Shown here: piece after piece, positions 48,193 through 64,000 of the stretch
Layout: each line of letters begins with the position of its first letter
Numbering within the stretch: position 1 is the first letter of the stretch
Program-made: the position numbers and the translations under genes
Notes under the pieces: model-generated
The model's database searches: none
Seen by the model: the letters and a program-made list of their open reading frames with translations, nothing else
Told to the model about the DNA's origin: nothing
Source: Bacteroidales bacterium
GTDB lineage: Bacteria > Bacteroidota > Bacteroidia > Bacteroidales > UBA932
Reading direction: 5' to 3'
Length of the DNA: 64,000 nucleotides
NCBI GenBank assembly: GCA_017445425.1
Contig: JAFSUF010000029.1
Span: forward strand, 1,926-65,925

Positions 48193-48218
48193 TTTGTTAC
48201 AATTATTAATTAGTTTTG
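48193..48218 (+). promoter_or_regulatory. weak candidate promoter for the FHA-kinase locus
   Basis: TAGTTTTG (48211-48218) fits TAnnTTTG exactly. The nearest upstream TTTG (48193-48196) is only 14 nt away, which is short spacing. Confidence 0.25.
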
Positions 48219-48464: not shown

Positions 48465-49205
48465 ATGGCAGACAAGACTAATGTTCCGGGAGTAAATGAT
48501 TTTGCTTCTGTTGAAGACCGCGGTTTAAGTTCAGATTATTATGAGAAGAAAGATCTGTCCCAAGCAGCCAGAAAAGATATTGGGGCAGGGACGGTCATTA
48601 CCGGTGAAACCGGAGAGGTTGAAGAATCGGTAAAGATTAAAACAAAGAGAGTTGAAAAAGACAAGCCGCTCCTTGGCTTCTTCTATTCTGTTTCCCGTGA
48701 CAAGTTTGGTGAATACTGGCCTTTATATCTGGGCCCCAATACCATTGGTAGGGACGGGAATAGTGATATTATCTTGAACGAAGGAACAGTATCAGGAAAT
48801 CATGCGACCTTAATTATTCATAAAGAAGATGATGGAGAGGTGTATGCCGGCATTAAGGATAATGGTTCCACCTATGGTGTCAAAGTAAACGGCAAGAGCA
48901 CCCACTTTGACGTGGTTGGCTGCAACAACATGGACATCATAAAGGTAGGAAAGAATTACGAGCTATTATTCATCCTGATTGATTCAGATCAGGTCGGCCT
49001 CAAGCCGGCAGAGAACTTCGTCGAAGTCAAGCGCGCATCATCAAAACAAGTAGATCGCCGTATTATTACCGGGCCGAGGAGCAGCGGGCCTGCGACCTAT
49101 CGTAACCCTAATAGCAGTCGCCTCGCTAATCCGTCAACAAATGACAGGACTCGCTCAATGGATGGCGAGACAGAAGACATTCACAACGGAACAGTCACAA
49201 GGTAA
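48465..49205 (+). CDS. FHA domain protein (cytoplasmic, no TM)
   Basis: Internal ATG gives MADKTNVPG... FHA core NTIGRDGNSDIILNEGTVSGNHATL...DNGSTYGVKVNG, then a low-complexity S/R/N tail. Confidence 0.8.
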   Translation: MADKTNVPGVNDFASVEDRGLSSDYYEKKDLSQAARKDIGAGTVITGETGEVEESVKIKTKRVEKDKPLLGFFYSVSRDKFGEYWPLYLGPNTIGRDGNSDIILNEGTVSGNHATLIIHKEDDGEVYAGIKDNGSTYGVKVNGKSTHFDVVGCNNMDIIKVGKNYELLFILIDSDQVGLKPAENFVEVKRASSKQVDRRIITGPRSSGPATYRNPNSSRLANPSTNDRTRSMDGETEDIHNGTVTR

Positions 49206-49214
49206 ACAGGTGAT

Positions 49215-50753
49215 ATGATACTGCAGGGAGAAATTGAGAAGCAGCACCATATTTATTACGAGTTTGAGAGGGGGAAGGAACCGATTGGTGCGGGCGGTAT
49301 GGGCACTGTATATCGCGGCCGGATGGTCGACGAGAAAACAGGTGCCTTCCGTGAAGTCGCCGTTAAAGAGATTGAACCCGAGGGGGATTACTCAGAACGA
49401 CAGACTATCTTGGACCGTGCCCGCAGAGAGGCATCGATTCAACTCCGCAACGACGATTTGGTGGAGATGCTTGGATTCGTCGAAACCACGGAGAAAAAGC
49501 TCGGAATAGAAAAGACCCGATACTATGTAATCAGCGAGTTCCTGGACGGAGTCACGCTTGACAAAGTTCTGTCAGGTGTTTATGCTGATTACAAAGGAGA
49601 GACTGTCGATTATGCCAGAGAACTGGCGGCAAATTACGGAAAAGACCGCGAAGGAACAGCAACACTGATTATCAAACATGTGCTGTCGGCAATAACTGCG
49701 CTGCACGACAACGGTTACCTTCATCGCGACATCGACCCGTCTAACATCATGATTACATCAGACGGAAAGATGAAGCTCATTGACTTCGGCATTGCCAAGA
49801 AGCAGAATTCCCTTGATCAATCAGATATGATGCAGTCTAAATCAGGCGCATTTGTCGGGAAAGTGGAATATGCTGCGCCAGAGTTGGTGGAGGGGAAGAT
49901 TACAGAACAGAACTTCACTACCGATATCTATGCAGCAGGAGTCTTGTTCTATCAACTTCTGACAGGACACCTTCCCTTTGCCGGCAACCGGTTTGATATC
50001 ATGAAGGGCCAGTTAAATGGTAAACCCGACTTCAGTAAGATACGCTCTAAGAAGTACAGGGTCATAGTTGAAAAGGCTATGTCAAAAAAACAAGCCAACC
50101 GGTTTGTTTCTGCATCTGCAATGAGGGCCGCGCTGGATGAGGAGGTTCAATCTTCGTCAAAATGGCCGTATGTGGCTGTAGTAGCGGCCGTTGCACTAGC
50201 TGCGATCATTATAGCGCTGGTTTGGCCGAAATCAGGTCCAGTTCCAGATCCAGTAGAGGTCTTTACTGAAAATGCGTTCACCGATAGCCAGGACACTATA
50301 TTGATAACATACAGTGTTGATAAGAGGGGTCAGAAGACAGAGCTCAAACGAGACACTTTGTTCGTGGCAAAACAAAAAAAGTTTGACGAGATACTGTCAC
50401 AGCCAATGGATGATATCTGGGATATGCTCTTATCAGAGGTGAACCGGTATAATCCAGCTGCCCTATATGCTGCAGCCCTCTATTATAAACGCCATGATGT
50501 TGATAGCAAAGCCAATAAATACTGGACTTCCGTTATAGTTCCTGAAGAAACTGCCAAGTATTTAAAAAAGACTAATACCAATTCTATTTCAGCACGTAGA
50601 ATTGAATACATCCTTCTATGTATGGCATACGACCATATAGATAAATCTGTCTGGTCGGATGCAGATTCCAAAGTGGTTGAAATAGAGGGTAAGATTAAAG
50701 AGATGTACAGTTCATTCTCAGAGCATTTTAAACTGCCCGCTGAACTTCAGTAA
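49215..50753 (+). CDS. Hanks-type Ser/Thr kinase-fold protein, single TM, ~170-aa extracytoplasmic domain; atypical catalytic loop
   Basis: GAGGMGTVYRG, VAVKEI, LHRDIDPSN (Asp where the HRDxKxxN Lys is expected), DFGIAK and AAPE. TM segment WPYVAVVAAVALAAIIIALVW. Confidence 0.8.
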   Translation: MILQGEIEKQHHIYYEFERGKEPIGAGGMGTVYRGRMVDEKTGAFREVAVKEIEPEGDYSERQTILDRARREASIQLRNDDLVEMLGFVETTEKKLGIEKTRYYVISEFLDGVTLDKVLSGVYADYKGETVDYARELAANYGKDREGTATLIIKHVLSAITALHDNGYLHRDIDPSNIMITSDGKMKLIDFGIAKKQNSLDQSDMMQSKSGAFVGKVEYAAPELVEGKITEQNFTTDIYAAGVLFYQLLTGHLPFAGNRFDIMKGQLNGKPDFSKIRSKKYRVIVEKAMSKKQANRFVSASAMRAALDEEVQSSSKWPYVAVVAAVALAAIIIALVWPKSGPVPDPVEVFTENAFTDSQDTILITYSVDKRGQKTELKRDTLFVAKQKKFDEILSQPMDDIWDMLLSEVNRYNPAALYAAALYYKRHDVDSKANKYWTSVIVPEETAKYLKKTNTNSISARRIEYILLCMAYDHIDKSVWSDADSKVVEIEGKIKEMYSSFSEHFKLPAELQ

Positions 50754-50772
50754 TTCTGTAATATAGAGAGAA

Positions 50773-51762
50773 ATGGAAGACGAAGTACCGGTAAGGATAT
50801 TTGACGACGACCCCAACATATATATATCGGTCTTTTATAGGGGCTGGAAGTGGTACTATTATAATCCGGATGTGAAGTGCCTGGGAGAGGGCGCCATGGG
50901 TAAGGTGTTTCTCGGCTTTGATTATGATACTAACCAAAAGGTAGCCATCAAGCAGCTGTTTGACAAGTACGCAAATGTCCGCTCTATCAGAGATCGGGCC
51001 CGGCTGGAGGCATCCCTGACATACAGCCACCCCAACTTGGTAGAGATGCAAGGCTGCTGTATGTATGAAGATGAAGAAGGCTACTGGCACGTCTGGGTGC
51101 TGAGCAAGTTTGTGGACGGGGAAATCATAAATAAGTATGTAAGCAAATTGGGGGATGACGCTAACAGGGTCCCTGTAATTGCAGGCCTGATTGGACAGGT
51201 TCTGGATGCCCTTGATTATCTTCATTCTAAGGGTGTAATACACAGGGACATAAAACCTTCAAACATAATGGTGGACCGAGATCGTCAAGTCAAACTGATG
51301 GACTTGGGCGTTGCCAGGGTTACAGGGGCAAACTCATATACCAGCAACGGATTTGTAGGTACCCCGCTATATGCCTCCCCTGAACAGATAATGCGTGATA
51401 AGATGCAGGTACAGGCAACTCCAGCAAGCGACATTTATTCATTGGGGATGACTATGTATGTCCTTTTGAATGGAGATCATCCGTTTGAAGCCCCAACCGA
51501 AGCACAGATTCTTATAAATCAGGTAACCAAAAAGCTCCCTGCATCAAAAGCCCTTGAGAAGAAATATAAGAAACTCATGAATGTGATTTGGAAAGCCACG
51601 GACAAGGATCCGGAAAACCGATATCAGTCGGCCATGGAATTCAAAAGTGCTATTGAAAGGGCTCTGACTCCGGAGCGGTCTCCATGGCTACGTAACATAA
51701 TAATTATACTAATGATGGTTGGGCTTTCTGTTCTGGCAGCAATACTAAAAATGATTTTTTAA
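50773..51762 (+). CDS. Hanks-type Ser/Thr protein kinase, C-terminal TM anchor
   Basis: GEGAMGKVF, VAIKQL, IHRDIKPSN, DLGVAR and ASPE. Terminal TM segment IIIILMMVGLSVLAAILKMIF. Confidence 0.85.
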   Translation: MEDEVPVRIFDDDPNIYISVFYRGWKWYYYNPDVKCLGEGAMGKVFLGFDYDTNQKVAIKQLFDKYANVRSIRDRARLEASLTYSHPNLVEMQGCCMYEDEEGYWHVWVLSKFVDGEIINKYVSKLGDDANRVPVIAGLIGQVLDALDYLHSKGVIHRDIKPSNIMVDRDRQVKLMDLGVARVTGANSYTSNGFVGTPLYASPEQIMRDKMQVQATPASDIYSLGMTMYVLLNGDHPFEAPTEAQILINQVTKKLPASKALEKKYKKLMNVIWKATDKDPENRYQSAMEFKSAIERALTPERSPWLRNIIIILMMVGLSVLAAILKMIF

Positions 51763-51765
51763 CAT

Positions 51766-52776
51766 ATGGCAAACGAAATAGAATCTTTCGGAATAGAGAC
51801 ACCCCTCTTTCTTAGCAACGCGGTCAGCTGCATTGGCGGCAGGGAGGAAAATCAAGATTCCACAACTATAATAGAAACAAGAAGAGGTCTTTTAGTGGTG
51901 GTATGTGATGGTATGGGTGGCATGGCTGGCGGCGCAACAGCCTCTTCTACAGCCGTAAAAGTCATATCGGAATATGTTTCTATGCTGGGTGTAGAAGATG
52001 ATATCGAAGTGGATAACCGCATGACCCTTATCAAAGCGATATCTCAAGCAAATTCCAAACTTTTTGAAATGTCCCAGACTGTCCCCGGACTGGCCGGGAT
52101 GGGTACGACGGTAACGGCCCTGTTGATTAACGAGGACAAAGCTTCAGTGGCGTATGTGGGAGATAGCAGGGTATATCAGATCAGGGGCGGACGGAAGATA
52201 TTCAGGACATTTGACCATTCTATGGTTTTCGAAATGGTCAAAAAGAAAATCATTACTGAAGAACAGGCTCGCCTCTCGTCTCAATCCAATATTATTTTAA
52301 GAGCACTTGGATTGAAAGAAGATGTCGATATAGAGACGTATGACCTACCCTATGACAAAGGGGATGTTTTTCTCCTTTGCACCGATGGTATATGGGGCAC
52401 CATGCCAGAGAAAGAATTGCTGAAAAGAGTTTCGCAGAAACAACATCCCAAGGTTATTTCCGAGACACTGGCCATGAATGTGCATAACGATGCCATACGT
52501 GCAGGTGGCGGGCACGACAACCTCACCGCTGCAATTGTGAAAACCAACATCGATTCTAAAACGAGAAGTATAATGGAAAGAAAAATCAAGACTGCATTGG
52601 CTGCATGTTTAGTGGTATTGCTGCTAAGCCTGGCCCTGAACGCCATTATGACAACAAAGGCAATCCGGACAAACGTCAAATATAATAACCTTAGAGACTC
52701 TATAGAGTCAAGCAAGAAGGTGCAGCAACCCCAAATAGATTCTACGACACTAAAGCTAAACGAACAAGAAAAATAG
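51766..52776 (+). CDS. PP2C-family Ser/Thr phosphatase with C-terminal TM segment
   Basis: VVCDGMGGMAGG, VGDSRVY, LLCTDGIW and GGHDNLTAAIV. TM segment ALAACLVVLLLSLALNAIM. Confidence 0.85.
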   Translation: MANEIESFGIETPLFLSNAVSCIGGREENQDSTTIIETRRGLLVVVCDGMGGMAGGATASSTAVKVISEYVSMLGVEDDIEVDNRMTLIKAISQANSKLFEMSQTVPGLAGMGTTVTALLINEDKASVAYVGDSRVYQIRGGRKIFRTFDHSMVFEMVKKKIITEEQARLSSQSNIILRALGLKEDVDIETYDLPYDKGDVFLLCTDGIWGTMPEKELLKRVSQKQHPKVISETLAMNVHNDAIRAGGGHDNLTAAIVKTNIDSKTRSIMERKIKTALAACLVVLLLSLALNAIMTTKAIRTNVKYNNLRDSIESSKKVQQPQIDSTTLKLNEQEK

Positions 52777-52782
52777 TATAAT

Positions 52783-53631
52783 ATGAAGAGTTACTCTATC
52801 GGAAGGGAAGAGACGTGCAATATCATCGTCAATGACCCGACACAGATGGTCAGCCGTATGCACGCTACACTTAATGTAGATGGCGGCAAAATGACCATAG
52901 TTGACAACAGTACCAACGGTACGTACATCAATGGAATTCGCATACAAAAAGGAGCACCAGTACCTGTATCCAGAAAAGATGTGGTTTCTTTTGCCCAGGT
53001 TGCAGAACTAGACTGGAACTGCGTTCCACGCTCGGACGACAAGTTACTTTATACCATCCTGGCTGTGCTGCTGTGCGTTTTGCTTGCAGGGGGCTTATCA
53101 TGGTATTTCCTAACTAAGGACAATCAGCCCAAACACCCGGACAACACAGCAGAAGAGGTGGATGTATGGAAAGGCTTTGCTTCTCACACAGACAGCCTGA
53201 AAGCAGATGTCACCTCTTTGAAAGCTGCCAAGAAGACAGCAGAGGATGACCTTGCCAAGTTAAGGAGCAGCCTGGAAGCCAAAGACCGCACCAAAAAGAA
53301 GGATAAAGACAAGGTTGAGCAAATCAACAAGAACATATGGCAGATTGAGGAATTATTGAAAAACGTTGATACTGACGATTTTGATAAGTCCATATCAAGT
53401 GTAGAGCAAAGTATAGCAGATAAATCTTCCAATACTGAAGAAAGGCTGAAGACGCTAGCGGCTAAAACTGCCGACGCCAAGGAAACTATCAAGAAAGTAG
53501 AAGAATTGCTCAAAACGACAAAAGATGAGATAAATAAACTTCCTGACCCGAAACATATAATAAATAATAATCACAGAAAGAAAAAAGATACAACTGAAAC
53601 AAAGCCAGTTATTGTAACACCTTTACCATAA
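52783..53631 (+). CDS. FHA - TM - K/E-rich coiled-coil protein
   Basis: YSIGREETCNIIVNDPTQMVSRMHATL...DNSTNGTYINGIRI. TM segment LLYTILAVLLCVLLAGGLSWYFL. About 170 aa of heptad-like charged sequence follows. Confidence 0.75.
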   Translation: MKSYSIGREETCNIIVNDPTQMVSRMHATLNVDGGKMTIVDNSTNGTYINGIRIQKGAPVPVSRKDVVSFAQVAELDWNCVPRSDDKLLYTILAVLLCVLLAGGLSWYFLTKDNQPKHPDNTAEEVDVWKGFASHTDSLKADVTSLKAAKKTAEDDLAKLRSSLEAKDRTKKKDKDKVEQINKNIWQIEELLKNVDTDDFDKSISSVEQSIADKSSNTEERLKTLAAKTADAKETIKKVEELLKTTKDEINKLPDPKHIINNNHRKKKDTTETKPVIVTPLP

Positions 53632-53644
53632 ATCCTTTAATAAG

Positions 53645-55177
53645 ATGAGACTAATAAGCATTGGGAAATCCCCGTCCTGCACTATATACATAGCCAGCGA
53701 GTATGTCAGCAACTATCATGCAGAATTGTTGTTGCTTGACAACGGCGACATTCTATTGACTGATTGCGGCAGTACTAATGGCACATTTTTAAATGGGAAG
53801 CAAATAACACCGCGAGTCGAGGTCCCTGTCCGCCGGGGTGACAGGATTGAATTTGACAACATTGCCCTCAATTGGGGCAATGTACCCCAGATCCCCCTCC
53901 CCGACCCCGCCAAGGTCAAGGGAGTTTACGGAGTAGGCAAAAGCCAGCGTAACCGATATAATCTCGTTGGAGACAGCGTGAGCCGCTATCATGCAACCTT
54001 TAAGGAGATGAAAAATGGCAAATGGTTTATTCAGGATCATAGTAAGAATGGCACTTTTGTCAACGGCTCCAAGATTCCTTCGAACCAGGACTTCCAGATA
54101 AAAGCTAAGGACAGTATTGTATGCGGCACCGTTCCGTGTCCAAATCCTGTGCCCGGCGGAACTCTCCCTTCATGGATCTGGGCAGCCGTAGGCGGGATAG
54201 CTGCGGCTATTCTGGTTTGCGTTATCTTGTCGATAATTATTCCACATAATGTAGATCCTTACAAGGCAGTTGCCATCGTCAAAGAGACATTTGCAATAAA
54301 GGTGGTTTTTGCAGATGACCCGATAGTGGATAAGCATAAATCGTGGTATCTGGCGTTGTCAAATTCTAACGCAGGGGGCTACACTTTGACGGACGATATA
54401 AGGAAGGCTTTTTCCACGCATCAGTACGGAACAGCGTTCTTTGTCTCTAAAGATGGTATGATGATTACAAATAAACATGTGGTTGATTGGATATACGCTG
54501 ACACTCATTATTCTGGCGGCGGGAAGCAGGTTGAAGATCTGAAAACACATGTTGAAAGGGCGAGGACGGATCTTTCAAATTATTTGGCTATAACCGGCAC
54601 GTTTTCAGTCGATGAAATAAACAAGTGGTATAAATCCACTTATGAGCTTTCTGTTGAGCCCCTATCTTTTGAGATAATTTATCCGGGACGTAGTTATACA
54701 GTATCGTCCCAATACGATGGGGCGCAACTGGTAAAAGTATCTGATGACCCTCAGGCAGATATAGCTATTCTCCAGCTTGACAATCAGGTGACACCATCAT
54801 TCTGTGAGTATTTTGACTTATCGCGTAGTTTGCCCGCTCATCAATTAAAGAGGAACGAGACATACTATACAATCGGATTCCCTTATGGGCCGATCGGCGC
54901 TACTCTGAACGACAATAAATATGAACCCCATTATGGCCAGTTGGTGCTGTCACAAAACCCTAAAAAATATACACTTACGTTTGACAAGTCCTCGGTAGGC
55001 GGCCAGAGTGGCTCCCCTATTTACGATAAAAAACACCGTTTGATTGGTGTTTTATACGGAACAGATGTTCTCAATGAGACCCTTGCGGCGCCAATAGACC
55101 TTGCAAAAGAGTTAATGAAGGACGTGGTTAAGGAAAATGATACATATAACAAGTTCAAATCGACAAATGCGTATTAA
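53645..55177 (+). CDS. 2 x FHA - TM - trypsin-like (S1, Trypsin_2-type) serine protease
   Basis: FHA1 is SIGKSPSCTIYIASEYVSNYHAELL...GSTNGTFLNG. FHA2 is YGVGKSQRNRYNLVGDSVSRYHATF...HSKNGTFVNG. TM segment WIWAAVGGIAAAILVCVILSIII. Protease triad context TNKHVV, DIAILQL and GGQSGSPIY. Confidence 0.8.
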   Translation: MRLISIGKSPSCTIYIASEYVSNYHAELLLLDNGDILLTDCGSTNGTFLNGKQITPRVEVPVRRGDRIEFDNIALNWGNVPQIPLPDPAKVKGVYGVGKSQRNRYNLVGDSVSRYHATFKEMKNGKWFIQDHSKNGTFVNGSKIPSNQDFQIKAKDSIVCGTVPCPNPVPGGTLPSWIWAAVGGIAAAILVCVILSIIIPHNVDPYKAVAIVKETFAIKVVFADDPIVDKHKSWYLALSNSNAGGYTLTDDIRKAFSTHQYGTAFFVSKDGMMITNKHVVDWIYADTHYSGGGKQVEDLKTHVERARTDLSNYLAITGTFSVDEINKWYKSTYELSVEPLSFEIIYPGRSYTVSSQYDGAQLVKVSDDPQADIAILQLDNQVTPSFCEYFDLSRSLPAHQLKRNETYYTIGFPYGPIGATLNDNKYEPHYGQLVLSQNPKKYTLTFDKSSVGGQSGSPIYDKKHRLIGVLYGTDVLNETLAAPIDLAKELMKDVVKENDTYNKFKSTNAY

Positions 55178-56756
55178 TAAATACATACTGACAACACTGG
55201 CGCTTACTCTTTCCATAAGCCTGAGTGCCCATACGGCCAGATGGTTGACCGCACCAAAGTATGAGTCTGCAACCCCAATATCGTCTTTATTGATCAAGGT
55301 TGAGCAAAACGGCAGGTTTGGTATTATTGATAATAATGGCTTGCAGAAGGTAGCCTGCGACTATTCGGAAATCACCGCATTCACCGGTGGGTATTGCCTT
55401 CTATTGAACGCCAATGACCAGCTTGCAGGCATCATGAATGAGCAGGGCGAAGTGACTAAAATAAATCAACGGTTCTCAATCAATGCCAGTTATCCATATT
55501 TTACCGACAATCTGCTTGCAGTATATGACGGAAAAAAATGGGGGTATATGGATACGTCCGGTCAGATTGCCATCAAAACCCAATACGAGAAAGCCAGACC
55601 CTTCTTTTATGGCGTCGCATCGGTAATCAAAACGGATGCCGTAAATAAAAAGAAATATGCTTGTTATATCAACCGCAACGGCGAGATTCTGTATAAGGGG
55701 GCTGATAATTATTTGATTTTCGCATCCTCCTATACCAAAGGTAATGAGCCGTTTGCAGTGATAGTAGATCCGGACAGAAATGTTTTCGCACGCGACGCTC
55801 AAGGCAAGCGCATCAAGAATTTGGGGAGACTGGTTGACAATAATCCAAATCAACTGATTACCAATTTATGTACAATCAATTTGTCTAATGCCGGCCAGGT
55901 CCGTTCTATGGTTTCTTCTGATGGAGAGAAAGCTTATGAAACCAACCTAATAGCACCCTATACGACAAAGGTTAACTCGCTCTCTTCGGAATCAGACCAA
56001 GGTGGATATGATCTCGTTGTAGATGGCAAGCAAGTACTACCAGGGCAGTTTGACGAACCCGCGCTTGCAGTAAGCAATTCTCGTGTTATTGCTAACAAAG
56101 GTGGTCTATATGGCCTTCTGGAGATCCTTAAAACCGGAGGGCCAAGAGTCGTATTTGCTGAATCCGATGTATTGTATGATCACCATACAAGCAAAGATAT
56201 CTCCGCAAGAGTTCAAATGCCATCTGAGCTTAATCATAATAACGTAACCGTCAGGGTCAACGAGGATGGGAACACACTTTTTGACGATGTTATAGACAAT
56301 AGCGGCAAATTCTCATTCAAATACCTGCCAATATCCCTGAAAGAGAAGGGAGAGGTCAGCTTTGATACAGAGATATCCATTGATGGCATAGTCTACCCCT
56401 CCAGCCAAGGCAATATACGTTTTGGCCACACCAATGCACTCAGTATTTCCGCTCCGGGTAAAGTCAAAGTTACAGAAACAGCTAACAACACCGGGCATAG
56501 GTTTACCGGTACATTTACTATATCGGTCACAAACAATTCCGACCAGGAGAGTGATAATTGTACTATTTGGGTTGACGGGAAGAAAGAGAAGGGTTCCGTT
56601 GTAATCCCCGCCGGGAAACGGGAAAATGTCTCTGTCACAAGAGTCGTGGATTTACAAGACCTTGATCGTAAAACAGTCAGTGTCACTGTTACGGTCAAGG
56701 AACAGGGCTGCCCTGATAAGACCGAATCTAAATCGATAGTTTTTGATAGATTTTAA
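55167..56756 (+). CDS. exported WG (KWG) repeat protein with C-terminal beta-rich region
   Basis: Internal start MRINKYILTTLALTLSISLSAHT (signal peptide). Repeats GRFGIIDNNGLQKVACDYSEI and KWGYMDTSGQIAIKTQYEKARPF. It overlaps the upstream stop by 11 nt. Confidence 0.65.
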   Translation: MRINKYILTTLALTLSISLSAHTARWLTAPKYESATPISSLLIKVEQNGRFGIIDNNGLQKVACDYSEITAFTGGYCLLLNANDQLAGIMNEQGEVTKINQRFSINASYPYFTDNLLAVYDGKKWGYMDTSGQIAIKTQYEKARPFFYGVASVIKTDAVNKKKYACYINRNGEILYKGADNYLIFASSYTKGNEPFAVIVDPDRNVFARDAQGKRIKNLGRLVDNNPNQLITNLCTINLSNAGQVRSMVSSDGEKAYETNLIAPYTTKVNSLSSESDQGGYDLVVDGKQVLPGQFDEPALAVSNSRVIANKGGLYGLLEILKTGGPRVVFAESDVLYDHHTSKDISARVQMPSELNHNNVTVRVNEDGNTLFDDVIDNSGKFSFKYLPISLKEKGEVSFDTEISIDGIVYPSSQGNIRFGHTNALSISAPGKVKVTETANNTGHRFTGTFTISVTNNSDQESDNCTIWVDGKKEKGSVVIPAGKRENVSVTRVVDLQDLDRKTVSVTVTVKEQGCPDKTESKSIVFDRF

Positions 56757-56768
56757 TACTAATTAATA

Positions 56769-57467
56769 ATGAAAAGATTTTTTTTAATCTCCCTCTGCCT
56801 TTTGTTTGGCAGTGCAGTCGGATTGTTTGCGCAGGAATTAAGCAAGGACGATTTCATAGCAAGCAGTTCCTCTGGAAGTAGCGTAGCAATGAAAATCGGG
56901 ATAGGAGCTGGCGTCAATGTAGCTGGCCTATCATCATCTAACAGCGAGTTTCCCGGCACCGGGATACGGCCTGGGTTCAACGGTGGTGTTATGTTTAATC
57001 TCCGTTTCCACCCACGTGACGAGATGTCCACCGCAGAGCAAGGGCTTTTTGCCATTCAGCCAGAAATCCGCTATTCTACAATGGGCGGTAATTCCAGTGA
57101 TTTCAAACTGGGTCTCTCCTATCTGACTGTTCCGGTTATGTTCCAGTTTTACCCGTCTGCAAACTTTTATATTGAGGCAGGCCCTGTAATGGCGCTAAAC
57201 ACATCACATACACCTAATACTACTGTTATTAACAACAAACAATATGATTTGGCCAAGTTGAAAGCCAACGATATGATGCTTGCGGCCGGAGTCGGCTTTC
57301 TTGCCGGAAATATAACTATCGGGGCCCGCTTCAACTTTGGTATCTCAGATATTGCCAGGAACATGAATTATAAGAACTGGTGCGCCCAGGCTGGCATTAT
57401 ATACAATTTCAAGTTGAAGAGCCATGAGGGGTCGGGTGTGAAAAAAGATGATGTTTTAGATTTATAA
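56769..57467 (+). CDS. small outer-membrane beta-barrel (OmpA-beta/PorT-like) protein
   Basis: Signal peptide ending LFAQE and alternating-hydrophobic strands. 232 aa. Confidence 0.55.
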   Translation: MKRFFLISLCLLFGSAVGLFAQELSKDDFIASSSSGSSVAMKIGIGAGVNVAGLSSSNSEFPGTGIRPGFNGGVMFNLRFHPRDEMSTAEQGLFAIQPEIRYSTMGGNSSDFKLGLSYLTVPVMFQFYPSANFYIEAGPVMALNTSHTPNTTVINNKQYDLAKLKANDMMLAAGVGFLAGNITIGARFNFGISDIARNMNYKNWCAQAGIIYNFKLKSHEGSGVKKDDVLDL

Positions 57468-57479
57468 AAAGAATTACCA

Positions 57480-58364
57480 ATGAAAACACGCATAATAATT
57501 CTGTCATTATTAATGACCTTGTGCAGCATTTTCTCTGCATGTGAGAACCAAGCTGTAGATATTACCGTCACTGCAGATATCACAATCAACACAGCTTCTG
57601 TGCTGGCGCCTTTTATCGCTTATGACTCTTCTGACCTGGATATGTATCCTGACAGTAAGGTCCGTCTGACATGTTTACTATATGATGCAGCGGGAGCCCT
57701 CATCAATCGACAGGACATCGCATTAAGTGATTTCTCATCGTCGGCGAATATCCAAGAGAAAATAGGGAGTCAGACATATACTCTTGTTGTAGTAGCTTCG
57801 TGCGTAAGTGGAGGGTCTTTGTTAAAGCCTGAGTATGAAGCATATTCTCTAACTGGGGTTAACAATTTGAATACTCTTAATATCGAACAAATAAAATCAG
57901 ACATATCTAAGGTGTTTGATTCTTGTTGGCAAGTTTTGGGCTTTGGCATACAAGAGAATCTGACACAAAGTGAGTATGAACCATTTATGACTCTTAAACC
58001 GGCAACCGCCCTAGTGTATATGAATTTTAGGAGCATCCATGCCAGTTCAAATATTGATCTTTATGCAATAGGCTGGACTTCAAATAATCTGATGACATTC
58101 ACTCAACAAAACGCTGGTTTTTCTTGCAACGTGGATGGAATATATGACGAATGCGACATTGAGCCTGATAGATATACATCGGAGAATCTTTATTCACTGT
58201 TTAGCGTATTCCCGGGTGAATGCCGTACTGTTGGTGCATCATTCACGGGAAATAACATTGTAGATTGGAAACAAAATAGTGTGAATGTTCAGGCTGGTCA
58301 TCAATATGTGTTCCAATATGACTGTTCTGCGGCAGCATTAACAATTAAAGAAGGAAGACTATAA
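57480..58364 (+). CDS. lipoprotein, unknown function
   Basis: MKTRIIILSLLMTLCSIFSAC lipobox with no recognised motif. Confidence 0.55.
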   Translation: MKTRIIILSLLMTLCSIFSACENQAVDITVTADITINTASVLAPFIAYDSSDLDMYPDSKVRLTCLLYDAAGALINRQDIALSDFSSSANIQEKIGSQTYTLVVVASCVSGGSLLKPEYEAYSLTGVNNLNTLNIEQIKSDISKVFDSCWQVLGFGIQENLTQSEYEPFMTLKPATALVYMNFRSIHASSNIDLYAIGWTSNNLMTFTQQNAGFSCNVDGIYDECDIEPDRYTSENLYSLFSVFPGECRTVGASFTGNNIVDWKQNSVNVQAGHQYVFQYDCSAAALTIKEGRL

Positions 58365-59353
58365 TGCGGTCCCATATCCCGTGTCTCCCGACAGTTTTCT
58401 GCCTGTGTTTTCTCATTCTTCCATCCTGCATGGAGGAGGATAAGTTTCTGGAAATACGCGAACCAGAAATTGTTGAGGTAGTGAATGATGAATATGTGGA
58501 GCAAAACCAGTGGATATATACTGTGATGAAAGTGTACTACCTGTGGAACAATCAGTTAAAGGACTCTTTGCAGTACAACTACTCACAGGAGCCAAAATCC
58601 TTCTTTTACAGTATGCTGGTTGCGGAAGACCGATTCTCGTATTGTGAAGTTAATGACGACTATGTGACAACCAAGGGCATCAACCTCAACGAAACAGTAA
58701 GGCTGGATAGCATCTATACCGTTGGAGATCGTTCCGTAGGTTATTTCTATTATACGGAATTTGCCACAGAGGCAGATGTAACCGACATAATTCTAAAATT
58801 TCAAGATGTTGACGAAGTGATTGTCGATGTCCGGGACAACCCGGGAGGTTATGTTCGCACATGTCGTTATTTATCCTCGCTATTGATTCCAGAAGAAGCT
58901 GCCGGCAAGTTATTTTGCAGTTACGAATATAACCAAACAATAAGTGCCCGAAACAGGCAGGAGACAGGGGACGAGCGTACGTATGATTACTTTTTTGATA
59001 CCCGCCTTGTCAGGGAACGAAGGCTCAATCTAGACCGGGTGTACTTCCTCACCAGCAAGTGGAGCGCTTCGTGCAGCGAACTGATTATTAGTTGCCTAAA
59101 GCCTTATATGCAAGTAATTACTATTGGCGAAACCTCGGTGGGTAAGGACGTAGGAATGAGGACGCAAAGCAGCCGGCGGTGTAAGTATGTCTTGCACCCT
59201 ATTACATTCAGGACATATAATGCTTATGATGAACCTGTCCCAACAACTGGTCTTGTTCCGGATATCTATGTAGAAAATACCAACCCTGAGTTATTGGGCT
59301 CCACAGAAGAACCCCTTCTGGGACGTGCCCTGCAAGAAATTATTAACAATTAA
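58364..59353 (+). CDS. S41-family (C-terminal processing type) peptidase lipoprotein
   Basis: Lipobox LILPSC. VIVDVRDNPGGYV, TSKWSASCSELII (Ser) and GETSVGKD (Lys) blocks. The ATG shares 1 nt with the upstream TAA. Confidence 0.7.
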   Translation: MRSHIPCLPTVFCLCFLILPSCMEEDKFLEIREPEIVEVVNDEYVEQNQWIYTVMKVYYLWNNQLKDSLQYNYSQEPKSFFYSMLVAEDRFSYCEVNDDYVTTKGINLNETVRLDSIYTVGDRSVGYFYYTEFATEADVTDIILKFQDVDEVIVDVRDNPGGYVRTCRYLSSLLIPEEAAGKLFCSYEYNQTISARNRQETGDERTYDYFFDTRLVRERRLNLDRVYFLTSKWSASCSELIISCLKPYMQVITIGETSVGKDVGMRTQSSRRCKYVLHPITFRTYNAYDEPVPTTGLVPDIYVENTNPELLGSTEEPLLGRALQEIINN

Positions 59354-59358
59354 AAGAT

Positions 59359-60675
59359 ATGATGAAATCAATAAAACACCTTTGCCTGGCGGTGGCCATA
59401 CTTGCAACAACTGCAATAAGTGCCCAGAATCAGACGATTACCCTTAAAGACGGGACTGTGTATGAAGGTTTTATATCTCGCCAGGACTTTAAAAGCGGGA
59501 TTGGCAATATTACTTACAGCAAGGTAACAAAACAGATTCCGGTAGAGCAGATTCGTGGAAGAAGGACTGAAAAACGTGAGCTTAGTACCCTGTCTAAAGA
59601 ATGGCAGACATGGGCGGAGGAGAATCACAAGATTGAGACGTCCGGTAGGGATAAGAAATATCTCTCCCTTACTAACATGACGGTTCTTGGTGTCACCAAA
59701 GATTGGTATATCCTGGTTAGTGGCAGCAAGGTTGTCACTGCCCTTACCTTGACTGAAGGTACTGATAGTTTCAGAATGTCAGATATTCAAAGCATCATAA
59801 AGCCAGAACGGGATGAGACCCTTCTTGCCGACATGGATGATATCATCCAGACCGATGCCATGACAATCACCGGTGTAGTTCTGGAGCAAAAGCCTGGTAA
59901 GTTATACACAATTTGGAATAAGGACGACAAGACTGTCCATAGCATAGATTATTCGGAGGTCCGCTCAATTGGCAAGGGTCGTCTCAATCCAGATTATAGG
60001 ATGTGGTCACAGACCCCTTTCCTTGAGCGGCTCATTCTCAAGAAAGGGCAGACAGCAACCGGCCTTATCATAGAGAATACAATCAGTCCTTCTATTAGCT
60101 TCCTTTTCGCAGAGAAAAGCGACAAGGGCGAGAGCATCCGCCAGTATTCCCTGGAGGAAGTAACCGGAGTGGAGAGATTCCGTAACGATGAGTACACTCC
60201 AGTATACGACATTGTACTTGGAGAAAACGAGTCTCGCGTCAATAGAGATAGTATTCTTGTTGAGGCGCCGATAGGGACTGTTTACACTCGTGATTCCAGC
60301 AAAGTATTCTATCTGGAACCCGATCAAACAGAAGCAATCGCAACTGTATCGGGGCCTGAGGTTACCGTTGAAACCAGCATTCAGGGGATATCTGATATAT
60401 TCGTTGCCAAATCTGTTTTAACTAAAAATGTGCCGATGAGCTATCTCAAGCCAGACACAACTGATGCTGGGAAAAAGGCTAAGAAGAAAAAAGACGAAGA
60501 AAAAGTAGATATCCAGACATTCACTTATGCAACATTGTTTGAATCTGAAATAGAAACAGAAGTGAGCACGAGCATAAACGGAACCACTAAAATCGTGTTT
60601 ACCCTTCCTGAGCCAGGTTTATACTATGTATATCTTCGACGCCTGAACAAAACATGGGCAATTAATTGGAATTAA
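59359..60675 (+). CDS. exported protein, unknown function
   Basis: Signal peptide LAVAILATTAISAQ. Repeated LKDGTVYEGFI-like beta-hairpin motifs and a K-rich patch KKAKKKKDEEK. Confidence 0.5.
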   Translation: MMKSIKHLCLAVAILATTAISAQNQTITLKDGTVYEGFISRQDFKSGIGNITYSKVTKQIPVEQIRGRRTEKRELSTLSKEWQTWAEENHKIETSGRDKKYLSLTNMTVLGVTKDWYILVSGSKVVTALTLTEGTDSFRMSDIQSIIKPERDETLLADMDDIIQTDAMTITGVVLEQKPGKLYTIWNKDDKTVHSIDYSEVRSIGKGRLNPDYRMWSQTPFLERLILKKGQTATGLIIENTISPSISFLFAEKSDKGESIRQYSLEEVTGVERFRNDEYTPVYDIVLGENESRVNRDSILVEAPIGTVYTRDSSKVFYLEPDQTEAIATVSGPEVTVETSIQGISDIFVAKSVLTKNVPMSYLKPDTTDAGKKAKKKKDEEKVDIQTFTYATLFESEIETEVSTSINGTTKIVFTLPEPGLYYVYLRRLNKTWAINWN

Positions 60676-60694
60676 TCATTAAAATTAGAGTAAT

Positions 60695-61318
60695 ATGAAA
60701 AAACTCTTTACTATAGTTGTATTATTGTCGTCGGTATTCATTGCTAATTCTCAAGTACTTGATACACCTCAACATGCAGGAAACAGCGGATCTCACAGTT
60801 TCTCATCTGTTTATTTGATTTATTCGCCGGCTAAGTACTATGGCCAGAATTCAGATTCAGATCCATTCATGAAATTCGCGATAGGAGGTGACAACGCATC
60901 ACTGCTCCCGATTGACAACTTTACTGCCTATTTCACAAAGGGGTTGATGGCAGAGTGGTATCACAAAACAGAGGATAAACTCTCAACCAATATGTTTTCT
61001 GTTAAAGCGCCCCTTAACGTGATGTTTGACCTTAAACTTTCAAATCAAATGAGCGTTCTTCCTTTTGCTGGAGTTAATGCCTCTCTTGGTATAATTGCCC
61101 GGATTGCGGATAGCTCAACTCATTACAATCTCTATAGTAAGGATGACATGGGCGATTACGCTCTTAGAAGGTTTTTGGTGGGTTGGCAAATCGGGACCCG
61201 CATTAACTACAAAGGATTCTATGGTATGGTTTCTTTTGAGAAGTCATTCATGGATGCTGGCAAGAATCTAGATTTTAAGCTGGGTGGAGTCAATATAGGA
61301 ATAGGCAAGTATCTGTAA
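60695..61318 (+). CDS. small outer-membrane beta-barrel protein
   Basis: Signal peptide ending IANSQ. 207 aa with a beta-strand pattern and an aromatic residue near the C-terminus. Confidence 0.5.
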   Translation: MKKLFTIVVLLSSVFIANSQVLDTPQHAGNSGSHSFSSVYLIYSPAKYYGQNSDSDPFMKFAIGGDNASLLPIDNFTAYFTKGLMAEWYHKTEDKLSTNMFSVKAPLNVMFDLKLSNQMSVLPFAGVNASLGIIARIADSSTHYNLYSKDDMGDYALRRFLVGWQIGTRINYKGFYGMVSFEKSFMDAGKNLDFKLGGVNIGIGKYL

Positions 61319-61347
61319 CCTGAATAGACCAAATAATAATACTGAAG

Positions 61348-61373
61348 GTACCCGGCAACTTCCGGGTACTTTT
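61348..61373 (+). terminator. intrinsic terminator ending the 12-gene run
   Basis: GTACCCGG / CCGGGTAC 8-bp stem, 6-nt loop, then TTTT. This is the first spacer longer than 19 nt since 48465. Confidence 0.65.
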
Positions 61374-61405
61374 AATTGTTTAAGTCTTTTTTAGTAAACC
61401 TACAT

Positions 61406-61951
61406 ATGAAAAAAACATTTTCTCTGTTAATCTGTCTGCTCTTGTTATTCTCTGTCCCAAGTGTTGCTCAGGTTCTTCACTTTGACACAAGTGAAGAAGA
61501 AGAACAAGAAAAAGAACCGGCAAAGATTTCGTCGTTCTATTATCCACTGAACTTCGCTTTCCTCACCAATGATGTCGCGAAAGGTATTGAAGTCTCTTTC
61601 GGCATGCTTAGTTATGACAGATATTTTGGCGAAACCAGTTCATATATAAAGCAGAATGCCACGCGTGTTATAACTCTTAATTTTCCTCAAGCTTACTATT
61701 TGGATAAGAAAAACACATTCTTCCTCTACCCAAAAATTGGTTTTGGTTATGGCTGGACCGTGGTGGAGATTAAAGGCTATGATCCCGAATCGGAAGGGGC
61801 CTTTGTATTCAATCTACACCCACAGGCTGGCATCAGGCTGGGGCCTGTGGGCATCACAGCAGGTTACCTCTACCATGCATATAAATTCAAATTCAACGGG
61901 AAAGGAGTATTTACTCTTGGCTTGGCAATAGGCCTTGACAACAAGCGATAA
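61406..61951 (+). CDS. small outer-membrane beta-barrel protein
   Basis: Internal start MKKTFSLLICLLLLFSVPSVAQ. 181 aa with an E-rich N-terminus followed by beta strands. Confidence 0.5.
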   Translation: MKKTFSLLICLLLLFSVPSVAQVLHFDTSEEEEQEKEPAKISSFYYPLNFAFLTNDVAKGIEVSFGMLSYDRYFGETSSYIKQNATRVITLNFPQAYYLDKKNTFFLYPKIGFGYGWTVVEIKGYDPESEGAFVFNLHPQAGIRLGPVGITAGYLYHAYKFKFNGKGVFTLGLAIGLDNKR

Positions 61952-62031
61952 AGCGACTTTTCCCGGGTTACTTCTTGGGGTTTCTGGTATATTGATATGT
62001 AAAAGCATTTTGCAAAAAGTACCATCTTTTT

Positions 62032-64000
62032 ATGAAAATGAGATTGCTACATAATCAGTTGTTCCCACTGCTCATTCTATTGTTTTTTGCTCCTGCCGTA
62101 TCAATCGCTCAGGAGAACGCAGATTATGAGCAGGCCCTCAAATATTATAAGGCAGGTAATGATTATTATGCCCATCAGAAATGGAAAGAAGCTTTAGACT
62201 GTATGAAAGAGGCGCGGATAGGCTTCCATAAAGCCGATGACAGGTATTATGAGATGCAATCCATCTGGGGAATAGCGACAATCGAGGGCCTGCATCTTTT
62301 CCATTTGCCGGAGGCCTTACAGGCATACAATGAGGCAGCGCAACTTGCCGATGATCCATCCGACCTGATGGAGATGTTGAAAGAGCAGCAGAAGGTTTGC
62401 GAACGATTTGGGGCAATGGAAGAACTATGGAAGGTGTCGGAACGGATGGACTCCCTTTTGGCCTTTTCTGACGCCCCTATCGTTAAATATAAGTACAATA
62501 CTACAATGGGGGATCGGGCAATGGCCCAAAAGCGATATGATGTGGCGGAGAGATGGTATCTCAATAATGAGGCCTTGCTTGAGCAGCTGCCAGAGAAAAG
62601 CTATTATTATCACTATAATAATCTAAGATGGTTTTATATTAAAACCGGGAATTGGGAGTTGGCGTTAAAGTACGCAGAGCTGGCTAAGCAGTCTTTTCAA
62701 CAGTACCATGCACCGACACCGTCTACGTTTTTACACTATTCACCCTACGTCTATTTTGCAGATATTTATAAACGCAAGGGTGATCGCGAGAAATGCTTTG
62801 CCTATATGGACAGCTTGTTTGCCGTGCTCCCATATCTGGAGGAGCCAAGGGAAATAAGTACGTTGTATACTCTCCGAGCCGTGAATCATAGGGCTTTTGG
62901 AGAACATGATCGTGCAATTGAAGACTTCAGGACAGCATACGATGTTGTGAAAGCCAAGTATGGAGAAGATGATGCCGATTGTATAGATTTGTTGCCGTTA
63001 CTTGCTAATCAGGAGTATAATTTAAAAAATTACGAAGAATCTGTACGCTTATATCGTCAATATGCCGAATATGAAGGGTTGACAAAAGGGAAGAACAGTG
63101 CCGATTATGTAAGCGCCTTGGATATGTTGGCCACCGCCGAAGCTTCTGCTGGACAAATTGAGTTGGCATGTGATGTTTTTGCAGAAGCCGAGAGTTGTTT
63201 ACAGGAGCAGATCCGTAGTAAGTGGCCCTACCTTACCGGCACAGACAGGGAGGGGTATTGGACGAATTACTCCGATTTACTCTTGCGTATGGCGCCCTTT
63301 GCCTTAACGGCGCAACAGTTTCAGACACCATATACCGAAATAAGCTATAATGGGTTGGTTTTGTCCAAGGCATTCTTGTTGGCTTCGGAGCAATCAACAT
63401 ATAGTTTGATAAAGAACAATGGTACCAAGGATGACTTAAATGACTATGCCGCCATACTGTCTATGCAATCTTATGTAAAACAGTTGGTGGCTGAAAAGGC
63501 TCATCCCGACAGTATTCTAGCATCGATGAAACGGGTACATCAACTTGAAACCGACTTGACAAGCCGATGCCGTTCATACGGAGAAGTTACGTCATTTATG
63601 GAGGTTGACTATCAGAAAGTGAAACAGTCGCTTCACGATGGGAATGTGTTATTGGATTTTACCGATTTTGTGCCGGGAAACGGAAGTCGGGTATATGCTG
63701 CTTATATCATAGACAACAGACAGGAGTATCCTCTCCTAAAAGAACTGTTTACAGAAAGTAGCATTGATTCTTTGAACGTTAGCCAGCCGCACCAGTACTA
63801 TTCCGGGCACTATGGAGATGCCTTATATAGGCTTCTGTGGGAACCGTTGAAGGATTATGTCAAGGAAGGTGATGTCGTTTATTATGTGCCCTCCCAGTTT
63901 TTGTTCCAGATAGCGCCGGAGGCACTGCCTGCAGGCGATGGTTCGCATCTTGGCGATCATTACCATTTCGTGCGACTTTCATCAGCAAGGGAATTGGTTA
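62032..64000 (+). CDS. exported TPR-repeat protein running into a CHAT (caspase-fold) domain; 3' end outside the window
   Basis: It is not in the ORF track because there is no stop in the window. My translation from the ATG at 62032 stays open to nt 64000. Signal peptide LFPLLILLFFAPAVSIAQ and about 400 aa of TPR-like helices. The CHAT-entry pattern follows: VLLDFTDF...VYAAYII...VVYYVPSQFLFQIAPEAL. The His/Cys dyad would lie beyond the window. Confidence 0.6.
   Translation, partial: MKMRLLHNQLFPLLILLFFAPAVSIAQENADYEQALKYYKAGNDYYAHQKWKEALDCMKEARIGFHKADDRYYEMQSIWGIATIEGLHLFHLPEALQAYNEAAQLADDPSDLMEMLKEQQKVCERFGAMEELWKVSERMDSLLAFSDAPIVKYKYNTTMGDRAMAQKRYDVAERWYLNNEALLEQLPEKSYYYHYNNLRWFYIKTGNWELALKYAELAKQSFQQYHAPTPSTFLHYSPYVYFADIYKRKGDREKCFAYMDSLFAVLPYLEEPREISTLYTLRAVNHRAFGEHDRAIEDFRTAYDVVKAKYGEDDADCIDLLPLLANQEYNLKNYEESVRLYRQYAEYEGLTKGKNSADYVSALDMLATAEASAGQIELACDVFAEAESCLQEQIRSKWPYLTGTDREGYWTNYSDLLLRMAPFALTAQQFQTPYTEISYNGLVLSKAFLLASEQSTYSLIKNNGTKDDLNDYAAILSMQSYVKQLVAEKAHPDSILASMKRVHQLETDLTSRCRSYGEVTSFMEVDYQKVKQSLHDGNVLLDFTDFVPGNGSRVYAAYIIDNRQEYPLLKELFTESSIDSLNVSQPHQYYSGHYGDALYRLLWEPLKDYVKEGDVVYYVPSQFLFQIAPEALPAGDGSHLGDHYHFVRLSSARELV

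Follow-up and report, generated by a model that had tools for sequence, protein, structure and literature searches.

Within a 64,000-nucleotide stretch of a Bacteroidales contig (JAFSUF010000029.1), called the window throughout, eleven genes (g01-g11) form a conserved module. It joins a cytoplasmic circuit of FHA domains, Hanks-type kinases and a PP2C phosphatase to a membrane-anchored periplasmic serine protease (g06) and a set of outer-envelope proteins. Relatives of this module are linked on the same strand to genes of the Bacteroidota-type type VI secretion system (T6SSiii) in 15/37 evaluable lineages, which fall in two clades. We argue that the module is an envelope-sensing phospho-relay resembling the threonine phosphorylation pathway (TPP) of Pseudomonas and that it drives g06, a DegS-like protease. 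We put the probability of this reading at roughly 0.55. An original prediction, made from the letters of the window, had described the circuit and its coupling to the protease and envelope proteins, and this combination turns out to be conserved. It had also set aside the analogy with T6SS switches for want of T6SS genes in the window. Since 15 of the 37 evaluable lineages have the cluster linked to T6SSiii, that analogy is now the best lead.

Relatives of the cluster were gathered in three ways. One genome per species was scanned, which gave 8 loci; distant g06 homologues were looked up by exact protein; and a profile-guided metagenome scan returned 193 relatives (80 loci kept). They were annotated with hidden Markov models of each window gene. 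Genes g01-g11 are collinear in about 100 loci, which represent 63 g06 lineages at 90% identity, and the flanking genes vary between lineages. This arrangement is not chance, because it recurs in about 100 independent loci with differing genomic contexts. Occupancy was scored over the 45 lineages with complete coverage (Table 1). The near-universal core consists of the soluble FHA protein, the two kinases, the PP2C phosphatase, the FHA protein with a transmembrane (TM) helix, the FHA-FHA-TM-protease and g11. The WG-repeat protein, the outer-membrane protein (OMP) and the lipoprotein are common accessories, and the S41 peptidase is optional. The original prediction drew a 14-gene unit with three protease families. 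Its co-location holds for g01-g11 and fails for g12, g13 and g14: S41 is found in 33% of lineages, TPR-CHAT in 4% and g12 and g13 in 2%, and the CHAT gene lies past the terminator. A second arrangement, the 'B' architecture, is seen at L067, L092, L095, L098, L101, L073 and L099 (related loci carry L numbers). There g11 comes directly after g06 and is followed by a second FHA-TM gene, a second PP2C and the ectodomain kinase, which is a partial duplication of the signalling sub-module.

The named members are all annotated "FHA domain-containing protein" or "hypothetical protein" and come from Bacteroidales or Muribaculaceae metagenome-assembled genomes. At least 501 clusters at 90% identity have the g06 architecture. 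The cultured carrier found is Phocaeicola massiliensis, in which a reduced cluster (g01-g07 plus a g11-like gene) sits between housekeeping genes. The single "plasmid" match is a 140-kb fragment of a P. massiliensis replicon with housekeeping flanks. Genetics is feasible because the family occurs in this cultured species and in human-gut metagenomes.

The T6SS linkage was scored in lineages with at least 2.5 kb of downstream sequence, and these are the 37 called evaluable. In 11 of them ClpV-TssB-TssC-Hcp come straight after the cluster in the same orientation, the gaps being -3 to 137 nt, and at L080 VgrG is next. On a neighbour-joining tree of g06 the ClpV-linked lineages are monophyletic, and linkage holds for every one of the 11 evaluable members of their clade. 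A screen with the four markers (ClpV, TssB, TssC, Hcp) undercounts, as a Pfam check of the downstream genes revealed TssR. This gene, for the lipoprotein of the T6SSiii membrane complex, is found in a second clade (L070, L087, L096, L102), where three unassigned genes separate it from the cluster; it has the same orientation and lies about 3.2-4.2 kb downstream. Linked relatives carry the T6SSiii-type TssC, TssD and TssR Pfam families. The region L070:6941-14668 encodes three exported or membrane proteins, TssR (N-terminal, VWA and C-terminal Pfam families), an ABC ATPase and a putative permease-like gene. The last two are reminiscent of the ABC pair TagS and TagT in the Pseudomonas TPP. One can imagine that g05-g11 stand in for the missing T6SSiii membrane complex, and this idea is weakened by TssR in the L070-type loci and by the lack of Tss matches among g05-g13. 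Because a true TssR is found downstream in those loci, the cluster accompanies the T6SSiii membrane complex rather than replacing it.

The protease g06 had been called trypsin-like. Its AlphaFold 2 model (predicted local distance difference test, pLDDT, 87.7) has two FHA domains, a TM helix and a protease domain. The helix spans residues 181-199 in a hydropathy scan and 176-198 in the model. The best Foldseek matches of the protease domain are protease domains of the HtrA family (DegS, HtrA1, Deg9, DegP, AlgW), with TM-scores of 0.65-0.74, normalised to the target, against the isolated domains of DegS, HtrA1 and Deg9. By sequence profile its relatives in the PDB are Spl, V8, DegQ and AlgW, and PF00949 is found in 2 of the 120 g06 homologues listed. 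The catalytic triad H278/D372/S456 is invariant in the orthologue alignment. Also modelled are a 3-helix insertion (277-329) that separates the catalytic His from the Asp and a lone C-terminal helix at 484-507. There is no PDZ match in Pfam, and the model has this single helix where a PDZ domain would be. As modelled, then, what had been called trypsin-like is by structure a protease of the HtrA/DegS type that has no PDZ.

The hydropathy scan finds exactly one TM helix in each of g02-g06 and no N-terminal signal peptide, in agreement with the predicted five single-pass proteins with their N termini inside. The soluble protein g01 has disordered arms with Thr motifs that are conserved in the orthologue alignment (MADKT-VPG, GTxIP and a C-terminal GGTx(T/P)R), and from these we infer a resemblance to the phospho-acceptor segments of GarA and Fha1. 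Its FHA domain keeps GR...SxxH in the window copy, and the Arg is gone in distant orthologues. The only FHA domain with a fully canonical phospho-threonine (pThr) pocket across the whole family is that of g05, where GR...SRxH...NGT is invariant. The kinases differ from one another. In g02 the catalytic loop is atypical (HRDIDPSN, residues 170-177), with Asp instead of the conserved Lys; HRDxDPxN is found in 54/57 lineages, and VAxK, DFG and APE are kept. Judged by its motifs, g02 may be a pseudokinase-like receptor subunit. In g03 the motifs are VAIK, HRDIKPSN, DLG and SPE, with HRDxKPSN in 52/54 lineages. The conservation of an atypical and a canonical kinase side by side suggests a receptor or activator paired with a catalytic kinase. 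The metal-binding motifs of the phosphatase g04 (RxxNQD, DGMGG, GDSR, xDG, DN) are invariant, with DGMGG in 56/60 lineages. Catalytic residues are intact across orthologues in the g03 kinase, the PP2C, the g06 protease and the S41 peptidase.

The envelope genes evolve faster. Identity between orthologues is 19-36% for periplasmic and outer-membrane genes and 47-79% for the cytoplasmic enzymes, as is expected of a sensing surface. The WG-repeat protein g07 is one of the fast-evolving genes (orthologues 19-34% identical), and a PDB sequence search gave no meaningful relative. The lipoprotein g09 belongs to a highly divergent family, for which a word-based search yielded 2 homologues only. Its nearest orthologues have 472-493 aa, and the window copy is without about 180 middle residues. 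It matches no Pfam or NCBIfam family, and a PDB search gave one weak match, a "putative adhesin" (E = 0.14). Wherever g10 is present it sits between g09 and g11, including at the T6SS-linked locus L020. Its Ser (SASCSE)/Lys (GK) dyad is kept in 5/5 orthologues; no PDZ domain was detected, and the S41_Gfo1087 match is sub-threshold. Acidic residues follow the lipobox Cys in both lipoproteins (C-MEEDK in g10, C-ENQAVD in g09), which we take to resemble the Bacteroidota lipoprotein export signal. One or both of them may be surface-exposed and not periplasmic.

The signature gene g11 had been listed as an unknown exported protein. Structure prediction gave a confident model for it (pLDDT 83.9), in which four small beta-barrel repeats lead into two beta-sandwich domains. 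The model has no fold match in the PDB (TM <= 0.15), and the protein has no PDB sequence match and no Pfam match. A search of 1.84 billion proteins with its profile yields 506 matching representatives at 50% identity (E <= 1e-3). From the model, g11 looks like a non-enzymatic binding or scaffold protein.

Table 1. Features of the cluster and its borders, with the share of the 45 completely covered lineages in which each gene is present.
Feature	Position	Strand	Evidence	Occupancy
PDDEXK_2 transposase-like gene (223 aa) and 101-aa open reading frame	46983-47960	-	directly 5' of cluster	
Candidate Bacteroides-type -7 promoter motif TAGTTTTG	48211..48218	+	consensus match only	
g01, soluble FHA protein, 246 aa	48465..49205	+	Pfam FHA, E = 2.9e-9	100%
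g02, Hanks-type kinase, TM helix 319-337, ~175-aa periplasmic domain	49215..50753	+	Pfam Pkinase, E = 4.6e-37	98%
g03, canonical Hanks kinase, C-terminal tail anchor (TM 309-327), no ectodomain	50773..51762	+	Pfam Pkinase, E = 1.5e-45	96%
g04, PP2C phosphatase, one TM helix (277-295), short periplasmic tail	51766..52776	+	Pfam PP2C_2, PP2C, SpoIIE	100%
g05, FHA, TM helix (88-106), periplasmic K/E-rich coiled coil	52783..53631	+	Pfam FHA, E = 9.5e-18	100%
g06, FHA-FHA-TM-periplasmic serine protease	53645..55177	+	Pfam FHA twice, Trypsin_2	100%
g07, exported WG-repeat protein, beta-rich C-terminal region	55167..56756	+	Pfam WG_beta_rep, E = 3.1e-19; signal peptide	82%
g08, small outer-membrane beta-barrel	56769..57467	+	Pfam OMP_b-brl_2, E = 6.6e-18; signal peptide	76%
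g09, lipoprotein, 294 aa	57480..58364	+	lipobox Cys21, invariant	67%
g10, S41 peptidase lipoprotein	58364..59353	+	Pfam Peptidase_S41, E = 8.2e-18, and Pept_S41_N; lipobox C22	33%
g11, exported all-beta protein	59359..60675	+	signal peptide; near-universal signature gene	98%
g12, exported 207-aa protein, last gene 5' of terminator	60695..61318	+	signal peptide	2% (window lineage only)
Intrinsic-terminator-like hairpin and T4 run	61343..61374	+	13 pairs, 6 G-C; top-ranked terminator-like site of region	
g13, exported small protein, possibly OMP	61406..61951	+	OMP_b-brl 25.6 bits against cut-off 28.7 (sub-threshold); signal peptide	2% (window lineage only)
g14, exported TPR-CHAT protein, 928 aa on source contig	62032..64000	+	Pfam TPR; signal peptide	4% (2 lineages)

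We propose the following route for the signal. The g08 beta-barrel, the g09 lipoprotein, the WG-repeat protein g07, the all-beta protein g11 and the ectodomain of g02 would detect a periplasmic or outer-membrane cue. The atypical kinase g02 would be a receptor or allosteric partner of the canonical, tail-anchored g03; both kinases would phosphorylate Thr sites, and the membrane phosphatase g04 would reset them. Two proteins would read the phospho-Thr: g05, which is canonical and membrane-anchored, and g01, which would be a GarA/Fha1-like soluble adaptor with Thr-bearing arms. The signal would then control the assembly or activity of g06, where two cytoplasmic FHA domains would take the place of the PDZ sensor. 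The optional S41 peptidase g10 would assist g06. In the linked lineages the signal would also control T6SS assembly, by analogy with TagQRST-PpkA-PppA-Fha1. No T6SS is adjacent in the window's clade; therefore its output would be local regulated proteolysis, envelope remodelling or a target encoded elsewhere. We also count the sub-threshold similarity of g05 and g06 to TagH and FhaB toward this reading.

It must be noted that several points weigh against such a relay. The argument is computational, and co-transcription is judged from spacing. The window and the 10 kb beyond it contain no T6SS gene, and T6SS markers are missing within about 10 kb in all 10 evaluable lineages of its clade, most of which carry S41. 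The Lys-to-Asp change may leave g02 inactive or with an unfamiliar chemistry. The canonical Arg is replaced by Lys in both g06 FHA domains in the window's clade, and by Ser or Thr in many other lineages, including T6SS-linked ones. Because these domains have Lys, Ser or Thr in so many lineages, direct phospho-gating of g06, and with it pThr-dependent control, is something we infer.

The missing T6SS could be explained differently. One can imagine that the window copy is a dedicated regulator that acts in trans on a T6SSiii locus elsewhere in its genome. Its gene set and order are those of the linked loci, down to the S41 gene at the linked L020, and the near-universal core is identical. For one B. 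massiliensis strain a T6SS locus is listed by Coyne 2016, and a different P. massiliensis strain (TSDC17.2-1.1) has an unlinked reduced cluster. However, linkage is limited to two clades: 0/22 evaluable lineages outside them have T6SS markers within 10 kb, and the 76-kb source contig is without T6SS. We regard a dedicated trans-acting regulator as unlikely, though it deserves to be kept in mind.

The sequence upstream of the cluster differs between lineages. A NusG/UpxY-like gene lies directly 5' of the cluster in 9 lineages, mostly T6SS-linked, and a tyrosine recombinase lies upstream in 8. The NusG genes (NusG plus KOW) at L017:4552-5229, L074:5005-5742, L051:4514-5248 and L066:1256-1945 are on the same strand as g01. 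A gene of this kind in this position hints at antitermination specific to the operon, whose transcript would be very long. At three loci (L011:4672-4877; L080:3860-4039; L017:4202-4494) a segment of 145-225 bp is enclosed by inverted repeats of 18-35 nt that are perfect or nearly so. The tyrosine recombinase lies on the upstream side of this segment, and the cluster or its NusG-like gene on the other. By its layout this segment looks like a Bacteroides invertible (phase-variable) promoter, and in L080 and L017 such a promoter would drive the T6SS genes too. The window is without the recombinase and repeats seen in these relatives, and the 504-nt gap upstream of g01 has no inverted repeats of the invertible-promoter type.

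These upstream signatures recall phase-variable accessory loci, and in this respect they fit the self-destruction that the original prediction suggested as one option. On this view the locus is a phosphorylation-gated self-destruction or abortive-infection system, whose exported HtrA-like, S41 and CHAT/caspase proteases would destroy the envelope on phage attack or danger. The GC content of the cluster, below that of the flank in most loci, could be read the same way, and so could the death-type genes found 3' of the cluster in a few loci (the window contig, L040, L014 and the L073/L088 type). These neighbours are as follows. On the source contig, past the window end, an exported C14 caspase-like gene with a signal peptide lies 3' of g14 (L021:13417-14292). 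Its orthologue at L040:18082-18924 (44% identity, E = 1e-77) is accompanied by a distant TPR-CHAT-like gene; the TPR regions of the window and L040 proteins are 24% identical. The lineages sharing C14 have g06 proteins about 57% identical to the window's, and C14 plus TPR-CHAT is found downstream of the cluster in the window and L040 only. At L014:18112-21665 the cluster is followed by four unassigned genes and, about 0.2 kb after them, by TIR, SIR2-TIR and nSTAND1-WD40 genes in the same orientation; this TIR/STAND group could be a defence-island neighbour or an alternative output. Loci of the L073/L088 type have Peptidase_M6 and an FGE-sulfatase-like gene downstream. Apart from these death-type genes, an ADP-ribosylglycohydrolase/PTP fusion is found downstream in most of the window's clade, and this looks like shared chromosomal synteny.

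None of these death-type neighbours is conserved, and the CHAT gene is as rare as Table 1 indicates. TPR-CHAT and the C14 caspase are minority neighbours and not core parts. All the proteases are exported, and the cluster is found in no phage record and no viral contig. PADLOC yields generic matches to kinase (PD-T4-6, MAD6), protease and PP2C models and no system; g01, g07, g09, g11 and g14 have no match at all. In Phocaeicola massiliensis, and at several other loci, only housekeeping genes flank the cluster, and the dominant recurrent partner is the T6SS, not a cell-death effector. We consider self-destruction an improbable function for this locus, and the phospho-relay remains our preferred reading.

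The three genes at and beyond the terminator can be described briefly. The predicted CHAT domain of g14 is clear in the full 928-aa protein, and in the part that the window contains it scores 22.4 bits, below the cut-off of 24. The exported protein g12 matches no Pfam or NCBIfam family and is found only at L009, L021 and L022, which are one lineage (the source contig and another contig of that lineage). The small protein g13 is confined to the window's lineage too and is a neighbour outside the conserved module. Three beta-barrels had been predicted: g08 is one by its Pfam family, g13 reaches that status only below threshold, and g12 has no family to go by. The other domain calls (FHA, Pkinase, PP2C, Trypsin_2, WG_beta_rep, OMP_b-brl_2, Peptidase_S41 and TPR) are borne out by Pfam.

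The layout of the locus agrees with what had been described. There are 14 open reading frames in 48465-64000, all on the same strand and at the coordinates originally assigned to them. The spacers of g01-g12, recomputed from these coordinates, are 9, 19, 3, 6, 13, -11, 12, 12, -1, 5 and 19 nt, where the -11 nt between g06 and g07 presupposes a g07 start at 55167. A hairpin search returned the same terminator. The g01 start codon at 48465 (MADKT...) fits the N-termini of orthologues in the alignment. In the 504-nt intergenic region 5' of g01 (47961-48464), TAnnTTTG occurs once on the + strand, as the candidate -7 motif of Table 1. Judged from spacing, g01-g11 (48465-60675), possibly through g12 to the terminator, would form one operon. 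The 11-12-gene unit is correctly delimited for the window, with CHAT outside it. An Rfam scan of 46-64 kb found no RNA family.

The transposase-like gene and the 101-aa reading frame mark the boundary between housekeeping genes (DnaG, MetRS, DUF308) and the cluster. The GC content of the window drops from about 54% before 48.0 kb to about 44% after it (1-48000 vs 48000-64000). Recent horizontal transfer into this genome was considered on account of this drop and rejected. The GC content of the cluster is below that of the upstream flank in almost all of 52 related loci (median 5.65 points) and scales with host GC. Since the same offset recurs across these loci and tracks the host, it is a family-wide trait and not evidence of recent transfer. 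Elsewhere in the window (23822-26182, - strand) there is a 786-aa patatin-like phospholipase with an Omp85-superfamily C-terminal domain, which is unrelated to the cluster.

It is worth considering what the family would mean as a whole. This family is a testable candidate for the control of when and where gut Bacteroidales fire their T6SS. The literature searched reports phospho-threonine control of T6SS for Pseudomonadota only, and for T6SSiii only the uncharacterised tagA, tagB and tagC. The T6SS link suggests a mode of regulation so far undescribed in gut Bacteroidales. More speculatively, the family could be a modular trans-envelope danger sensor, in which an HtrA protease is switched 'inside-out' through cytoplasmic FHA domains and the same chassis is plugged into interchangeable outputs. 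We hold this broader idea tentatively and think it rather unlikely. If it were true, T6SSiii firing in two clades would give Bacteroidota their first pathway of post-translational T6SS control. The outputs elsewhere would be exported caspase and CHAT proteases in the window lineage and TIR/SIR2/STAND genes in another. The window locus would then respond to envelope damage independently of a T6SS, by triggering exported proteases of the death type.

No curated family, defence-system model or searched paper names the cluster, which was not recognised as a described system in the original prediction either. No cluster protein is above cut-off in NCBIfam. In the literature searched, which was without most subscription-journal papers, the module and its T6SSiii linkage are undescribed, and nothing found there on FHA or a kinase in connection with T6SSiii, Bacteroidales, Prevotella or GA4 describes them. 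The conflict-system papers of Kaur et al. (2020/2021) mention FHA sporadically, as an effector domain, and do not describe the present gene set. Their NTP-dependent/EAD systems couple a CHAT, caspase or trypsin effector peptidase to a STAND, vWA-MoxR or GTPase core or to effector-associated domains (EAD), and no NTPase, vWA or EAD is found in g01-g14. Another parallel is the signalling peptidases fused to FHA (PrsW-FHA) of Zhang et al. 2012 (PMC3482391), where a membrane peptidase is likewise coupled to a cytoplasmic phosphopeptide-binding FHA. However, PrsW is intramembrane whereas g06 is a periplasmic HtrA, and PMC3482391 has no conserved kinase, PP2C and envelope gene set. YscD of the type III secretion system (T3SS) and GltG of Myxococcus also have an N-terminal cytoplasmic FHA, one TM helix and a periplasmic domain, and there are weak matches to Yop-YscD_cpl (Pfam) and GltG (NCBIfam). 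The FHA domains in those proteins are structural ring or motor parts with no kinase-phosphatase partner, and no other T3SS or Glt gene is present at the window locus.

The actinobacterial FhaA-FhaB-PstP-RodA-PbpA-PknA-PknB operon has the same five types of signalling part with the same membrane topologies: a soluble FHA protein with a long linker, an FHA-TM protein, a PP2C-TM protein, and kinases with and without an ectodomain. One can imagine, then, that the cluster regulates cell-wall growth or division in the manner of fhaA-fhaB-pstP-(rodA-pbpA)-pknA-pknB, with the proteases acting on envelope-biogenesis factors. FhaB/FipA is indeed the best sub-threshold NCBIfam family for g05 and g06 (31.9 and 72.6 bits against a cut-off of 125). 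S41/Ctp peptidases are also known to regulate cell-wall hydrolases in other bacteria. However, there is no FtsW/RodA, transpeptidase or PASTA domain in g01-g14 or the upstream genes, and no pbpA; PknB_PASTA_kin scores 151 bits against a cut-off of 450. The phylum is another one, and a protease, WG-repeat, OMP and lipoprotein set is added. The cluster also has an accessory character, with varied contexts, GC below that of its flanks, recombinase and invertible-promoter signatures, variable architectures and duplicated sub-modules, and is therefore unlike a housekeeping morphogenesis operon. A role in cell-wall growth or division is, in our judgement, highly improbable.

For the phospho-relay that we prefer, the protease half is best compared with regulated site-1 proteolysis by DegS and AlgW, as in the sigma-E envelope stress response. 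Here too there is an inner-membrane-anchored periplasmic HtrA-fold protease with an intact triad in an envelope-sensing context with OMPs. The differences are that g06 has no PDZ domain, has the 3-helix insertion between His and Asp, and has two cytoplasmic FHA domains N-terminal to its anchor, which implies control from the cytoplasmic side. No anti-sigma factor, sigma factor or RseP is found in the operon. The secretion systems of the linked relatives share the TssC, TssD and TssR families with the Bacteroidales T6SSiii types GA1-GA3 (TssNOPQR, TagA/B/C), whereas g05-g13 match no Tss family in Pfam. FHA and kinases go unmentioned both in the paper on the T6SSiii membrane complex and in that on GA1-3 genomics. 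In a 2026 review of T6SS accessory factors the TagE/TagG/TagH phosphorylation pathway appears for Pseudomonadota only, and Bacteroidales T6SSiii is described as GA1-3 with uncharacterised tagA, tagB and tagC.

The signalling half is closest to the TPP (TagQRST-PpkA/TagE-PppA/TagG-Fha1/TagH), with which we group Agrobacterium PpkA-TssL-Fha as a variant. The TPP has a membrane Hanks kinase with a periplasmic domain, as g02 is, and a PP2C partner, as g04 is. It also has FHA readers, an outer-membrane lipoprotein and periplasmic accessory proteins. To these likenesses can be added the T6SS genes on the same strand in related lineages, abutting in the 11 described above, and the ABC ATPase next to TssR in L070-type loci. 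The differences are just as clear. The ectodomain kinase g02 has the atypical HRDxD loop and the canonical g03 has no ectodomain, so the cluster has two kinases, and it has three FHA proteins, two of them membrane-anchored. The TagH family (TIGR03354) is not reached by g05 (53.5 bits) or g06 (55.1 bits) at a cut-off of 120.25, and no TagQ, TagR, TagS, TagT or TagF match is found in the cluster. The FHA-tethered HtrA protease and the novel g11 have no TPP counterpart. The linked partner is T6SSiii, not T6SSi, and the window copy has no adjacent T6SS. Because the cluster fails family-level membership for TagH, FhaB, PASTA kinases and PDZ-bearing HtrA, it is not a member of those families, and neither is it categorically new.

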